Below, piece after piece: positions 3,751-7,102 of a stretch of 10,441 nucleotides of DNA. The translations under genes and the position numbers were made by a program. Every line of letters begins with the position of its first letter. Positions within the stretch are counted from its first letter, which is position 1. The DNA is from a virus. Lineage: Duplodnaviria; Heunggongvirae; Uroviricota; Caudoviricetes. The DNA lies in the IMG/VR virus record IMGVR_UViG_2681813269_000009; one strand, given 5' to 3'. Under the pieces are notes generated by a model. It did no database searches and was not told the origin of the DNA. It saw only the letters and a list, made by a program, of their open reading frames with translations.

Positions 3751-4131
3751 ATGACCGAGCGCATAGAATTTGTTTTACCTTACCCGCCGACGGTGAACAC
3801 TTACTGGCGTCGTCGTGGCAGCACATATTTTGTATCAAAAGCCGGGGAGCGTTATCGCCGGGCAGTGGCGCTTATTGTTCGCCAGCAGCGGCTGAAATTA
3901 AGCCTGTCCGGAAGGTTGGCAATAAAAATTATTGCAGAACCACCGGATAAGCGCCGCCGTGACCTGGACAATATTCTGAAAGCGCCGCTGGATGCGCTGA
4001 CGCATGCGGGGTTGCTAATGGACGATGAGCAGTTTGATGAAATCAATATCGTTCGTGGTCAGCCAGTATCTGGTGGACGTCTGGGGGTGAAGATTTACCC
4101 CATAATGCATGAAGAGCAGGTCAAAAAATGA
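3751..4131 (+). CDS. rusA: RusA-family Holliday junction resolvase (126 aa)
   Basis: Motifs PPTVNTYW, RRRDLDN and the acidic DDEQ region resemble E. coli RusA. Start abuts the upstream stop. SD ggaaag. Confidence 0.85.
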   Translation: MTERIEFVLPYPPTVNTYWRRRGSTYFVSKAGERYRRAVALIVRQQRLKLSLSGRLAIKIIAEPPDKRRRDLDNILKAPLDALTHAGLLMDDEQFDEINIVRGQPVSGGRLGVKIYPIMHEEQVKK

Positions 4132-4949
4132 AACTGGAAGATTTACCGAAATACTACTCCCCAAAATCCCCTTGCCTGACCGATGCATCGGCCTCAACGT
4201 CAAAAGATGCGCTGAGTATCACTGATGTGATGGCCGCGCAGGGCATGACACAGAATCGGGCTGAGATGGGGTTTTCTGCGTTCCTGGGGAAAATGGGCAT
4301 CAGTATGAATGACAGGGCGCGGGCAACAGAATTACTGGCAGATTATGCACTCAGTCGGTGCGATCGTGTGGCGGCGTTGAGAAAACTTCCGGCAGAAATA
4401 AAACCGGTAGTGATGCGCATTATGGCTTCGTACGCTTTTGAGGATTATGCCCGCAGCGCAGCGAGTAAAAAGCAGTGCCCTTGTTGCTATGGGGAAAAAT
4501 TTATTGAAAGCGTAGTTTTTACAAACAAGGTCCAGTATCCGGATGGTAAGCCGCCGGTATGGGCAAAGTGTACGAAAGGTGTGTATCCGTCTTACTGGGA
4601 AGAATGGAAAAAAGTCAGGGAGGTGGTAAAAGTTGCCTGTCCGGAGTGTGGCGGAAAGGGTGAGGTTTCCACCGCCTGTAAGGATTGCCGTGGGCGTGGT
4701 GTCGCCATTCATCGTGAAGAGTCGGTAAAACGTGGTATGCCTGTTATCAGAGACTGCCAGCGTTGTGGTGGTCGTGGCTATGAAAGACTACCATCAACGG
4801 AGGCATTTAATGCTATATGCGAGGTGACAAACCAGATAACACGCGCGTCATGGGAAAAAACAGTTAAGAAATTTTATGATGCGCTGGTGACCCGGTTTGA
4901 TATTGAAGAAGCATGGGCTGAGCGGCAGTTAAAAAAGGTAACTAGGTAA
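4128..4949 (+). CDS. Late-gene antitermination protein Q (273 aa)
   Basis: ATGA overlap with the rusA stop. Multiple CxxC pairs (CPCC, CPECGG, CKDCRG, CQRCGG) typical of zinc-binding Q proteins. Immediately followed by a promoter plus short-transcript terminator. Confidence 0.8.
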   Translation: MKLEDLPKYYSPKSPCLTDASASTSKDALSITDVMAAQGMTQNRAEMGFSAFLGKMGISMNDRARATELLADYALSRCDRVAALRKLPAEIKPVVMRIMASYAFEDYARSAASKKQCPCCYGEKFIESVVFTNKVQYPDGKPPVWAKCTKGVYPSYWEEWKKVREVVKVACPECGGKGEVSTACKDCRGRGVAIHREESVKRGMPVIRDCQRCGGRGYERLPSTEAFNAICEVTNQITRASWEKTVKKFYDALVTRFDIEEAWAERQLKKVTR

Positions 4950-4954
4950 CAAGG

Positions 4955-4982
4955 TTGATTTTTCCGGAATCTGTGGTAAATT
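4955..4982 (+). promoter_or_regulatory. Candidate late promoter PR' (with presumed qut region)
   Basis: -35 TTGATT (4955-4960), 16-bp spacer, extended -10 TGgTAAATT (4974-4982), directly downstream of the Q stop. Confidence 0.5.
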
Positions 4983-5030
4983 CGTCATAACGATGGGCGT
5001 TTTATGCCTGACGTTAGAAGAGTTTCTACA

Positions 5031-5053
5031 ACCCGCCGCCGAGCGGGTTTTTT
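5031..5053 (+). terminator. tR'-like Rho-independent terminator
   Basis: Stem acccgc / gcgggt with loop cgccga, then TTTTTT. Lies about 45 nt downstream of the predicted PR' start, as in lambdoid PR'-tR' modules. Confidence 0.6.
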
Positions 5054-5173
5054 ATGACTGAAATCGCGTCAGTACAGTAAACGCGCTGGTGGCGGTGAAT
5101 ACCTGTCTTTCAGCTTGCTGGCTTTTTCGACAAGAGTTATTGGTGTGTCACGTTAACCGGAAAAGGAAAAGAC

Positions 5174-5371
5174 ATGCTAAAACAGCAGGATATGACAGAA
5201 ACCGCCAGAGTGGTGTTTAATGAATTAAGCGTTACCGAACCGGCGACAGTCGGGGAGATAGCGCAGAATACTTACCTTTCACGCGAACGCTGCCAGTTAA
5301 TACTGACCCAGCTGGTTATGGCGGGTCTGGCAGACTATCAGTTCGGTTGTTACAGACGCCTTCCGCAGTGA
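5174..5371 (+). CDS. Small hypothetical protein (65 aa), HTH-like
   Basis: Strong SD aaaggaaaag before ATG at 5174. Segment ATVGEIAQNTYLSRERCQLILTQLVMAGL looks like a helix-turn-helix. Not recognised as a named family. Confidence 0.5.
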   Translation: MLKQQDMTETARVVFNELSVTEPATVGEIAQNTYLSRERCQLILTQLVMAGLADYQFGCYRRLPQ

Positions 5372-5382
5372 AGGCTTTTTTA
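5358..5382 (+). terminator. Candidate Rho-independent terminator overlapping the stop of the 65-aa ORF
   Basis: Stem gcctt / aaggc with loop ccgcagtg, followed by tttttta. Confidence 0.45.
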
Positions 5383-5398
5383 TTTGTGGTAAATGGGC

Positions 5399-5429
5399 GG
5401 CTGGTGGGTGTTAGGGGCACCCACCAGCC
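5399..5429 (+). promoter_or_regulatory. Perfect 12-bp inverted repeat (hairpin or operator candidate)
   Basis: ggctggtgggtg (5399-5410), loop ttagggg, cacccaccagcc (5418-5429). No T-tract follows. Confidence 0.4.
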
Positions 5430-5521
5430 ATCTGCTCATGCGTTGGGTTCACAAGCAAACCTCAGGCCCACTGCTTTGCGCAAAAGCAGAATGAGCCTAT
5501 CAGAGACAGGCTTAATGATCC

Positions 5522-6580
5522 ATGCTTAATACTGTAAAAATATCCAGTTGTGAGTTAATCAACGCCGACTGCCTGGAATTTATCCGGTCGTTACCCGAAA
5601 ATTCTGTTGACCTGATAGTCACGGACCCGCCGTACTTTAAAGTGAAGCCTGAGGGCTGGGATAACCAGTGGAAGGGCGACGATGATTACCTGAAGTGGCT
5701 GGACCAGTGTCTGGCGCAGTTCTGGCGGGTGCTGAAACCTGCCGGAAGTCTTTACCTGTTCTGTGGTCATCGCCTGGCATCTGATATCGAAATCATGATG
5801 CGTGAACGCTTCAGTGTGCTGAACCATATTATCTGGGCGAAGCCGTCCGGACGCTGGAACGGATGCAACAAGGAAAGCCTGCGGGCGTATTTCCCCGCCA
5901 CAGAGCGCATTCTGTTCGCGGAACATTATCAGGGGCCGTATCGTCCGAAAGATGCCGGGTATGCGGCGAAGGGCAGTGCACTGAAACAGCATGTGATGGC
6001 CCCGCTGATTTCTTACTTTCGTGATGCGCGAGCTGCCCTGGGGATAACGGCAAAACAGATTGCAGATGCCACAGGAAAGAAAAACATGGTGTCGCACTGG
6101 TTCAGTGCCGGTCAGTGGCAGTTGCCGAATGAAAGCGATTATCTGAAATTACAGGCGCTGTTTGCCCGGGTGGCAGAAGAGAAGCATCGGCGTGGTGAAC
6201 TGGAAAAGCTCCACCACCAGCTGGTGGATACGTATACCTCACTGAACCGGCAGTATGCGGAGCTGCTGAGTGAATATAAACATCTGCGGCGGTATTTTGG
6301 CGTGACGGTGCAGGTGCCGTATACCGATGTGTGGACGCATAAACCGGTGCAGTTCTATCCCGGGAAACATCCGTGCGAAAAACCGGCAGAAATGCTGCAG
6401 CAGATAATCAGCGCTAGCAGTCGTCCGGGTGACCTGATTGCAGATTTTTTCATGGGGTTGGGTTCGACAGTGAAAGCGGCACTGGCGCTCGGGCGTCGTG
6501 CAATTGGCGTTGAGCTGGAGACTGAACGTTTTGAGCAGACGGTTCGGGAAGTACAGGATTTAGTCAGCCAGAACGGATGA
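5522..6580 (+). CDS. DNA amino-methyltransferase (N6-adenine or N4-cytosine), orphan (352 aa)
   Basis: DPPY catalytic motif at aa 35-38 (nt 5624-5635) and a C-terminal FxGxG AdoMet motif (DFFMGLGST), the order seen in beta-class amino-MTases. No restriction endonuclease partner in the window. Confidence 0.85.
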   Translation: MLNTVKISSCELINADCLEFIRSLPENSVDLIVTDPPYFKVKPEGWDNQWKGDDDYLKWLDQCLAQFWRVLKPAGSLYLFCGHRLASDIEIMMRERFSVLNHIIWAKPSGRWNGCNKESLRAYFPATERILFAEHYQGPYRPKDAGYAAKGSALKQHVMAPLISYFRDARAALGITAKQIADATGKKNMVSHWFSAGQWQLPNESDYLKLQALFARVAEEKHRRGELEKLHHQLVDTYTSLNRQYAELLSEYKHLRRYFGVTVQVPYTDVWTHKPVQFYPGKHPCEKPAEMLQQIISASSRPGDLIADFFMGLGSTVKAALALGRRAIGVELETERFEQTVREVQDLVSQNG

Positions 6581-6620: not shown

Positions 6621-6696
6621 GGCCCTTTAGCTCAGTGGTGAGAGCGAGCGACTCATAATCGCCAGGTCGCTGGTTCAAATCCAGCAAGGGCCACCA
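6621..6696 (+). tRNA. tRNA-Ile2 (anticodon CAT, lysidine type; Met not excluded)
   Basis: Hand-folded cloverleaf: acceptor ggccctt / aagggcc, anticodon loop ctCATaa, T-loop ttcaaat, 3' CCA. Closely resembles E. coli ileX and the ileZ of Stx phages, from memory. Confidence 0.8.
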
Positions 6697-6703
6697 TCAC
6701 ATA

Positions 6704-6780
6704 CCGCCATTAGCTCATCAGGAAAGAGCGCCAGCCTTCGAAGCTGGCTGCGCGGGGTTCAAGTCCCCGATGGCGGTCCA
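6704..6780 (+). tRNA. tRNA-Arg (anticodon TCG)
   Basis: Acceptor ccgccat / atggcgg, D-stem gctc / gagc, anticodon stem ccagc / gctgg with loop ctTCGaa, T-arm cgggg-ttcaagt-ccccg, discriminator t, CCA. Confidence 0.75.
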
Positions 6781-6793
6781 TTATCTGCATCAT

Positions 6794-6833
6794 GCGTTGT
6801 TAGCTCAGCCGGACAGAGCAATTGCCTTCTAAG
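6794..6833 (+). tRNA. tRNA-Arg (TCT), 5' part only, truncated by assembly gap
   Basis: Identical to the first 40 nt of the complete tRNA at 7103-7179, then runs into N at 6834. Confidence 0.5.
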
Positions 6834-6982
6834 NNNNNNNNNNNNNNNNNNNNNNNNNNNNNNNNNNNNNNNNNNNNNNNNNNNNNNNNNNNNNNNNNNN
6901 NNNNNNNNNNNNNNNNNNNNNNNNNNNNNNNNNNNNNNNNNNNNNNNNNNNNNNNNNNNNNNNNNNNNNNNNNNNNNNNNNN
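6834..6982. other. Assembly gap (149 N)
   Basis: Run of N. Confidence 1.
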
Positions 6983-7002
6983 AAATCCAGCAAGGGCCAC
7001 CA
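6983..7002 (+). tRNA. 3' end fragment of a second tRNA-Ile2 copy
   Basis: aaatccagcaagggccacca is identical to 6677-6696 and emerges from the gap. Confidence 0.5.
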
Positions 7003-7009
7003 TCACAAA

Positions 7010-7089
7010 CCGCCATTAGCTTATCAGGAAGAGCAGACGACACGATAACAGGGTTGTTGGTGCGGGGGCGGGTCCCCGATGGCGGTCCA
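7010..7089 (+). pseudogene. Degenerate tRNA-Arg-like element
   Basis: Keeps the acceptor stem (ccgccat / atggcgg), a D-arm and 3' CCA of the Arg-TCG tRNA. The anticodon and T arms are replaced by gacgacacgataacagggttgttggtgcgggggcgggt, which has no canonical 7-nt anticodon loop or TTC T-loop. Confidence 0.45.
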
Positions 7090-7102
7090 TTATCGGTATT
7101 CA

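Follow-up and report, generated by a model that had tools for sequence, protein, structure and literature searches.

The window that we analysed is a stretch of 10,441 nucleotides from a virus of the Caudoviricetes (IMG/VR record IMGVR_UViG_2681813269_000009), and at positions 5522..6580 of its plus strand it encodes an orphan beta-class N6-adenine DNA methyltransferase of the M.EcoGI/M.EcoGII type, a protein of 352 amino acids identified from Pfam, PADLOC and sequence identity. Genes of this kind have been described before, this one being in essence another allele of M.EcoGI/M.EcoGII, and it is extremely common; the value of the finding is that of a correction, in that the window methylase belongs to the enzyme family that is sold and used as M.EcoGII. 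We consider it probable that it is an AdoMet-using, context-free N6-adenine methylase, silent in the lysogen and induced through Q as a late gene, that protects phage DNA against restriction. Novelty may lie solely in a structured RNA leader that abuts the start codon, together with a small upstream gene, orf65, both of which appear to be undescribed.

The open reading frame is intact, running from an ATG through 352 codons to a stop codon within these coordinates and containing no frameshift. Pfam PF01555 (N6_N4_Mtase) matches residues 29–340 with 144.1 bits against a cut-off of 26.7 (E 7.9e-42), and the PADLOC model for Type II methylases, MTase_II, matches with an E-value of 5e-163. PF01555 is the sole Pfam match, the D12-class domain PF02086 not being matched. 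Motif IV, DPPY, lies near the N-terminus (residues 35–38; nt 5624–5635), while the AdoMet-binding motif I of the FxGxG form, here F-M-G-L-G, lies near the C-terminus (residues 310–314; nt 6449–6463), and this order of motif IV, target recognition domain (TRD) and motif I defines the enzyme as beta class. A Dam-type alpha-class (GATC) methylase is ruled out by the PF01555-only match and by the position of motif IV before motif I; in Stx2 prophages, M.EcoVT2Dam and the M.EcoGI/GII homologues are separate enzymes (O111 STEC study). Among 82 relatives, taken from 80 genome loci and the reference loci and sharing 61–97% identity with the window protein, D35–Y38, F310 and G314 never vary, and 81 have glycine at position 312. 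Relatives of solved structure, among them M.RsrI, CcrM, DpnA and M.MboIIA, align to the methylase over the two Rossmann halves alone (residues 8–140 and 270–345), the E-values for CcrM, M.RsrI and M.MboIIA being 1e-15 to 1e-25, and the central 130 residues are family-specific. A sequence-only reading of this DNA had proposed a DPPY amino-methyltransferase here, and the open reading frame, the PF01555 match and the order of the motifs all bear this out.

Membership of the M.EcoGI/M.EcoGII clade follows from similarity over both the full length and the TRD, and from a prophage late context that lacks a partner restriction endonuclease. The methylase is identical to M.EcoGII at 324 of 349 positions (~93%), the comparison sequence having been machine-read from the PDF of PMC11551740 Table S1 and containing a few evident errors, and within the TRD (residues 160–237, the limits being those modelled by the SUPREM authors) 71 of 78 residues are identical. 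A closer match, at 96%, is the 349-residue copy from an O104:H4 prophage, WP_000935536.1, whose locus shares with the window the order hokD, DUF968, RusA, Q, orf65, methylase, tRNA Ile/Arg/Arg and iraM. WP_000935536.1 has about 16 real differences from M.EcoGII, like the published count for M.EcoGI, and judged by this number, rather than from REBASE, it is probably M.EcoGI itself. Many Stx2-converting phages, and likewise phage 1720a-02, carry a 'DNA methylase' gene with 95% nucleotide identity to that of the window, whose protein recurs with 100% identity in four IMG/VR contigs. Of 5426 complete E. coli genomes, 2347 (~43%) contain the cassette, in up to 10 places per genome, and the best match among them is 98% identical to the window across it.

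M.EcoGII methylates up to 96–99% of adenines in vitro and also acts on ssDNA, RNA and hybrids; its constitutive expression is harmful to the cell, and both it and M.EcoGI, a protein of the same strain with which it shares 333 of 349 residues, are unexpressed in the O104:H4 lysogen (PMC5778455). M.EcoGII and the methylase of phage 1720a-02 were also described as 'very similar', and it was proposed that M.EcoGII is turned on at induction and defeats restriction (Murray et al., 2018; PMC5778455). M.EcoGI is reported as non-specific in the account given in PMC4659465, and the primary report on both enzymes (Fang et al., 2012) is drawn on here through the results related in PMC4659465, PMC6602927 and PMC5778455. 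M.EcoMV of ST131, a 99% homologue of M.EcoGI, was untranscribed by RT-PCR and predicted to be inactive, and no pattern of methylation in ST131 could be traced to it (PMC4659465). Reconstructed ancestors of the family have been reported to be largely non-sequence-specific. The sequence-only reading had considered the target specificity to be unreadable; given 93–96% identity to the non-specific M.EcoGII and M.EcoGI, the expected target of the window enzyme would, by homology, be any adenine. Its non-specificity, its toxicity and its silence in the lysogen are likewise properties that we carry over from the literature on near-identical enzymes and that would be expected to hold for this copy.

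No restriction endonuclease model of PADLOC or Pfam matched among the nine flanking ORFs, which are the annotated genes across the window. The window ORFs other than the methylase correspond to HNH, DUF551, hok/sok, DUF968, RusA, Q, orf65, orf117 (117 aa), an IS3-family transposase and IraM, and the only nuclease hit is the phage-type HNH protein, some 5 kb upstream of the methylase. In place of the adjacent cognate endonuclease that marks a Type II restriction-modification system, the neighbours of the methylase are Q, orf65 and tRNAs. In the literature its homologues, too, are regarded as orphans, and the earlier claim that there is no cognate restriction gene stands on both counts.

The methylase is the first long gene of the lambdoid late operon and is encoded on the strand of that operon, with Q upstream of it and the lysis genes further on. 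The gene for the Q antiterminator (4128..4949, plus strand; 273 aa) matches Pfam Antiterm PF03589 (E 6e-55) and the PHROG family 'anti-termination protein Q-like', and it is 93% identical to the Q gene found upstream of the O104:H4 methylase copy. Immediately behind it, at 4955..4997 on the plus strand, the sequence can be read as a pR'-like late promoter with a sigma70 pause-type element: a −35 hexamer TTGATT (4955–4960), a 16-nt spacer with TG at 4974–4975, a −10 hexamer TAAATT (4977–4982) and, 6 nt further on, AACGAT-GGG (4989–4997). In the window the −10 hexamer is followed after 6 nt by AACGATGGG, and lambda pR' for comparison has TTGACT, 17 nt, TAAATT, 6 nt and AACGATGGG, so that the two promoters share an identical −10 hexamer and an equal spacing to the sigma70 pause element; AACGATGGG also stands behind a promoter-like site in one further locus (L010). 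By analogy with lambda we infer that 4955–4997 is a pR' promoter with a promoter-proximal pause.

Between this promoter and the methylase a terminator scan places two stops on the plus strand: a first, tR'-like intrinsic terminator at 5030..5055, with a 7-bp GC-rich stem and a T run, and a second terminator-like hairpin and T run at 5358..5385, which overlaps the stop codon of orf65. A pR' transcript ending at the first of these is predicted to measure about 65 nt; its identification as a homologue of StxS is unsupported, StxS arising from a 258-nt transcript of another Q/pR' type. The two terminators are consistent with silence of the window copy in the lysogen. The methylase had been placed between tR' and the tRNA island and read as expressed with the late genes; the placement agrees with the terminators at 5030–5055 and 5358–5385, the ATG at 5522 and the first tRNA at 6621, and the expression agrees with a position behind Q, the pR'-like promoter and both terminators, from which the Q-dependence of this particular copy may be deduced.

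What lies behind the methylase differs between loci. Holin, endolysin and Rz genes follow it directly in Salmonella, Enterobacter, Trabulsiella, phage Ayreon and an Aeromonas phage, and in Stx2a phages the cassette is followed by three tRNAs and then stx2AB. In the window a tRNA island (6621..7179, plus strand; ARAGORN and Rfam), comprising a tRNA with a CAT anticodon, Arg-TCG and Arg-TCT, begins 40 nt past the methylase and is partly duplicated and partly masked. Downstream tRNAs were seen in Escherichia loci only; they are an Escherichia-specific insertion behind the methylase, and the idea that methylase and tRNAs are functionally linked was rejected on this ground. An IS3-family transposase lies 1.8 kb downstream of the methylase, inside the late region, and it may be doubtful whether a prophage with such an element there can complete the lytic cycle.

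Upstream of the methylase, orf65 (5174..5371, plus strand) encodes a 65-aa winged-helix-like protein that matches PHROG 331 (E 1e-37), a family whose function is unassigned there. Of 83 loci compared (80 from genomes plus three from phages and E. coli), 66 have orf65 at a distance of 76–154 nt ahead of the methylase although their Q types differ, the range of orf65–methylase loci extending from Escherichia to Xenorhabdus, Photorhabdus, Providencia and Morganella, and the gene is also found in phages such as phiP27, SfV, mEp460 and cdtI. Weak winged-helix matches recur across the orf65 family, 13 of 24 members matching DprA_WH and 13 of 24 matching TrmB (best E-values 4e-6 and 3e-4, respectively), and the family profile matches the wHTH domain of DsyB (E 0.002). 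A single-sequence AlphaFold model gave three helices with a pLDDT of 53, which is unreliable and too poor for a fold search. The Pfam family Zn_ribbon_Com is not matched by orf65, so the small upstream gene is not of the Com type.

Between orf65 and the methylase, at 5386..5521 on the plus strand, lies a conserved structured RNA leader of five helices, defined by alignment, covariance model and folding, that abuts the methylase ATG. The leader is about 140 nt long, is usually preceded by orf65, and is conserved in nucleotide sequence across loci whose methylases are only 62–80% identical in protein. The five-helix structure was proposed by hand and tested on a MAFFT alignment of 33 sequences, in which 88.9% of cells are paired as against 30–42% when the partners are slid, and in which ten compensatory pairs occur as against 5.0 ± 1.3 in shuffles (1/500). 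One pair occurs as C-G, U-A, A-U and U-G, and the presence of G-U pairs assigns the structure to the sense strand. With a covariance model the leader was located immediately in front of the ATG in 48 loci, of which 13 lack orf65, and the alignment fitted to this model, which is structure-biased by construction, contains 20 compensated pairs against 7.3 ± 1.6. Folding of the window leader gives an MFE of −60.6 kcal/mol (z = −3.96).

The methylase ATG has no Shine-Dalgarno sequence ahead of it, and a GATC 2–3 nt before the ATG is near-invariant. A hairpin and a T-rich run precede the leader in every locus inspected, including those that lack orf65. Rfam, searched at gathering thresholds and at E ≤ 10, gave no family for the leader or for the pR' transcript; P26 was on the wrong strand (24 vs 36 bits) and isrK reached 16 vs 50 bits. 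A leader peptide (ATG GGC GGC TGG TGG..., MGGWWVL) was rejected, the peptide being unconserved in Providencia and Morganella where the helix is conserved, as was the reading of the conserved TGTGRAAAT as an extended −10 promoter, since its key second position varies (A, G or T). A candidate long-range pairing of GGUCA with the UGAUC that precedes the ATG has few variants, and these are non-compensating. A description of the leader or of orf65 was not found in the literature searched.

These elements can be arranged into a mechanism. In the lysogen, constitutive transcription from pR' would be halted at the terminators just past Q, and the toxic methylase would not be made. On induction, RNA polymerase modified by Q would pass both terminators, orf65 and the structured leader, and the methylase would be made together with the tRNAs and, in relatives, also with stx and lysis genes. 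Replicating phage DNA would then become heavily adenine-methylated ahead of packaging, and in the next host this methylation of the progeny DNA would blunt restriction by Type I and Type III systems and by many of the Type II systems. The proposal is founded on the family membership of the enzyme, the intact gene, its orphan status, the layout of promoter and terminators and the conservation of the leader and orf65, all of which are observed. Q-dependent expression of this copy, a benefit against restriction and regulation by the leader and orf65 are the steps that we infer from them. Protection from host restriction, one of the two roles offered in the sequence-only reading, is also the function favoured by those who characterised the family.

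A further and more tentative proposal, which we regard as possible but somewhat short of probable, is that the leader, fused to a start without a Shine-Dalgarno sequence and mostly accompanied by orf65, forms an undescribed cassette that gates the methylase after Q has acted, as an analogue of Com/mom built from unrelated parts. The arrangement suggests, by analogy, that the leader and orf65 could control the methylase in a manner like that of com over mom in Mu.

The alternative that survives best is that the gene is intact but the allele catalytically impaired by the substitution S313L, perhaps with the added decay of an IS-ridden prophage, leaving a functionless remnant of the M.EcoGII type. 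S313L results from a single TCG>TTG change and falls in the middle of FxGxG. Position 313 is serine in 158 of 162 relatives, namely in every one of the 82 from genomes and in 76 of the 80 from IMG/VR contigs, and the IS3-family transposase in the late region adds to the suspicion. Against this, the residue aligned to 313 is valine in CcrM and threonine in TTHA0409 (serine in M.MboIIA and DpnA), and because active CcrM carries valine there, a hydrophobic residue at 313 may be tolerable and compatible with activity in this fold, which weakens S313L as an inactivating lesion. The four contigs with leucine are independent and 100% identical to the window protein, and the methylase frame contains neither frameshift nor stop. 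Another substitution, S197G, is an ordinary shared polymorphism, position 197 being serine in 81 of the 82 genome relatives and glycine in 9 of 80 IMG/VR contigs. Nor is relaxed selection on the window lineage supported, as its seven non-synonymous and six synonymous lineage-specific changes in the methylase are no worse than the 13:12 of the Stx2a-converting phage Stx2_95 genome. We consider an impaired allele unlikely, though it is the alternative to be taken most seriously.

Less probable still is a lytic purpose other than anti-restriction, such as RNA methylation, interference with Dam-dependent processes of the host, or the timing of replication, packaging or lysis. M.EcoGII does modify RNA and DNA:RNA hybrids, but its initial velocity is ~90-fold lower on RNA than on DNA (0.12 vs 11.12; Table S3, PMC11551740). 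In favour of such a purpose, the methylase is kept directly upstream of lysis genes in many genera; its adjacency to tRNAs is confined to Escherichia, which speaks against it. Plasmid methylated by M.EcoGII transforms E. coli 10^4–10^5-fold less well (PMC5778455), which again favours a purpose of this kind and suggests that heavy adenine methylation may be costly. Set against such purposes are the Mu-like phages, in which unrelated non-specific methylases and Mom hold analogous late positions with documented protection from restriction: Mu Mom, Hia5, Hin1523 and Nma1821 are late, toxic, lysogen-silent and protective, and the last three replace mom behind com (PMC3299994).

A sequence-specific orphan methylase acting epigenetically in the lysogen, as a regulator like Dam or CcrM, is very improbable: host genes are indeed regulated by some orphan enzymes of the beta class, CcrM among them, and there are partial matches to the NCBIfam models for YhdJ and CcrM, but these lie far under the curated cut-offs (111 vs 292 and 71 vs 830 bits, respectively), the closest characterised relatives (93–96% identity) are non-specific and unexpressed in lysogens, two terminators separate the methylase from the sole promoter found, and an associated motif is absent from all reported lysogen methylomes. 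In O111 STEC lysogens with homologues, for example, the motifs were GATC, CTGCAG and CRARCAG only, none of which was tied to the homologue. The epigenetic role that had been suggested as the other possibility is thus unlikely in the lysogen, where near-identical genes are silent and published SMRT methylomes show no associated motif. The same considerations undo the check that had been put forward with it, in which the methylomes of a lysogen and a cured strain are compared and the lack of a new motif counts as refutation: with a gene that lysogens keep silent and an enzyme that recognises no motif, a null result would be expected whether the enzyme is active or not, and the published lysogen methylomes indeed show no motif associated with near-identical genes.

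On the favoured reading, that of a Q-induced and non-specific methylase protecting phage DNA, a lysogen methylome would by design miss the activity of the enzyme. The position of the gene also bears on Stx2 phages, in many of which the methylase lies upstream of stx2AB, on the same strand and downstream of Q. If the leader and orf65 do control expression, this would explain how prophages can safely carry a lethal genome-wide methylase, would provide a compact off-switch where M.EcoGII is used in biotechnology, and would add a class of structured RNA to the regulation of phage late genes.

Among the systems closest to the window methylase is M.EcoGII from the O104:H4 C227-11 prophage (PMC5778455), with which it shares the DPPY–TRD–FxGxG architecture, the setting in a prophage late region and the lack of a partner endonuclease. 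It differs in about 20 real substitutions, including S313L in motif I, and in a C-terminus that is three residues longer and reads VSQNG instead of IV. The M.EcoGI and M.EcoMV loci of the O104:H4 and ST131 prophages (PMC4659465) have the same neighbours, namely hokD, DUF968, RusA, Q, orf65, tRNAs and iraM, and downstream the window departs from the M.EcoGI locus by insertions of the IS3 family and a tRNA island duplicated in part. The 'DNA methylase' of Stx2a, Stx2c and Stx2d phages, phiP27, SfV, mEp460 and 1720a-02 is 81–95% identical to the window methylase, and the Stx2 phages, phiP27, SfV, mEp460 and 1720a-02 share the order of Q, orf65, leader, methylase and tRNAs with stx2AB or lysis genes; unlike the Stx2 phages, the window has no stx behind the tRNAs, where orf117, the IS element and iraM are found instead. 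Sequence-specific beta-class enzymes (CcrM, M.RsrI and M.MboIIA) align with the window methylase over the catalytic Rossmann core and both motifs but have a different TRD.

Hia5, Hin1523 and Nma1821 of the Mu-like prophages (PMC3299994) are alike in being near non-specific m6A methylases, silent in the lysogen and late, with a small regulator gene upstream; however, they belong to another methylase lineage (aligned with Dam and M1.DpnII) and their upstream gene is a homologue of the Com zinc finger. Mu com-mom itself likewise places a toxic, late, broad-specificity modifier of adenine behind a small ORF and a structured mRNA leader, although Mom is an enzyme of the acyltransferase fold that makes a different adduct and orf65 is no homologue of Com. 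The methylase of Aeromonas phage phiARM81ld, which is 55% identical to that of the window, is overlapped at its start by a genuine gene for a Com zinc ribbon (Pfam, 27.9 bits against a cut-off of 22.9), so that its locus has the layout of Mu com-mom. By analogy with these systems, we hypothesise that the M.EcoGII family of the Enterobacterales may be under an extra layer of post-transcriptional control, exerted by a device other than Com.

Abutting the methylase ATG in the window is a five-helix RNA leader of approximately 140 nt (5386-5521), which is conserved with compensatory changes and has no matching family in Rfam 15. The structured leader lies directly before the methylase ATG in 48 of the compared methylase loci (L005-L047, L066, L073, L075, L078 and L079), and in these it is always preceded by a terminator-like hairpin. 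A Shine-Dalgarno sequence is absent before the methylase start codon. A GATC, the site recognised by Dam, is found 2-3 nt 5' of the ATG (5514-5524) and is near-invariant across genera.

Further upstream is orf65 (5174-5371), a 65-amino acid winged-helix-like ORF belonging to PHROG 331, whose stop codon is contained within the second terminator hairpin. Of the 83 loci, 66 carry it ahead of the methylase gene; these span several genera, and the linkage is independent of the type of Q, the antiterminator. At 4955-5055 the window also has a lambda-type pR' (TAAATT-6 nt-AACGATGGG) with a strong terminator about 40 nt past it, a combination from which a lysogen would constitutively make an RNA some 65 nt long. 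The predicted RNA would be the same kind of antitermination by-product as gives StxS in other Stx phages, and a search for homology to StxS or isrK found none.

Within the methylase itself, the S313L substitution (codon 313, 6458-6460) falls in AdoMet motif I, at a position that is serine in 158 of the 162 relatives examined, the four exceptions being identical to the window. S197G (codon 197, 6110-6112), which 9 of the 80 viral contigs share, is a minor polymorphism.

Downstream, the tRNA island appears to be partly duplicated (6794-7179). It begins with a CAT-anticodon tRNA (6621-6696), which ARAGORN assigns to Met whereas PGAP labels the corresponding gene in several relatives as tRNA-Ile (ileZ type, read via lysidine). 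This is followed by Arg(TCG) and by a third tRNA that starts at 6794 and enters a 150-nt masked stretch (6834-6983), beyond which lie the 3' end of a second copy of the CAT tRNA and an Arg(TCG)-like sequence that has a disrupted anticodon arm and receives no ARAGORN call. The last tRNA of the island is Arg(TCT), at 7103-7179.

Between orf117 and iraM, the late region is interrupted (7820-9700) by an IS3-family element (OrfB on the minus strand, 8416-9234; NCBIfam transpos_IS3, E 1e-99) and two Rfam matches to STnc100 (8005-8194 and 9474-9662), together with short masked stretches; the related O104:H4 prophage carries no insertion at this place. Two other elements are placed likewise in that prophage. 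One is a hok/sok type I toxin-antitoxin pair (1789-2114), matched by Rfam sok at 112 bits and by Pfam HOK_GEF at E 3e-23, which sits in the nin-like region ahead of DUF968, RusA and Q. The other is a gene for a homologue of the anti-adapter protein IraM (9688-10023, minus strand; NCBIfam 162 bits against a cut-off of 121), which lies on the opposite strand inside the late region.

Aeromonas phage phiARM81ld (L085) encodes a distantly related methylase that is 55% identical to that of the window. It is followed by holin and Rz genes, and its start is overlapped by a Pfam-confirmed Com zinc-ribbon gene (L085 2329-2544), an arrangement that is the com-mom layout of Mu.
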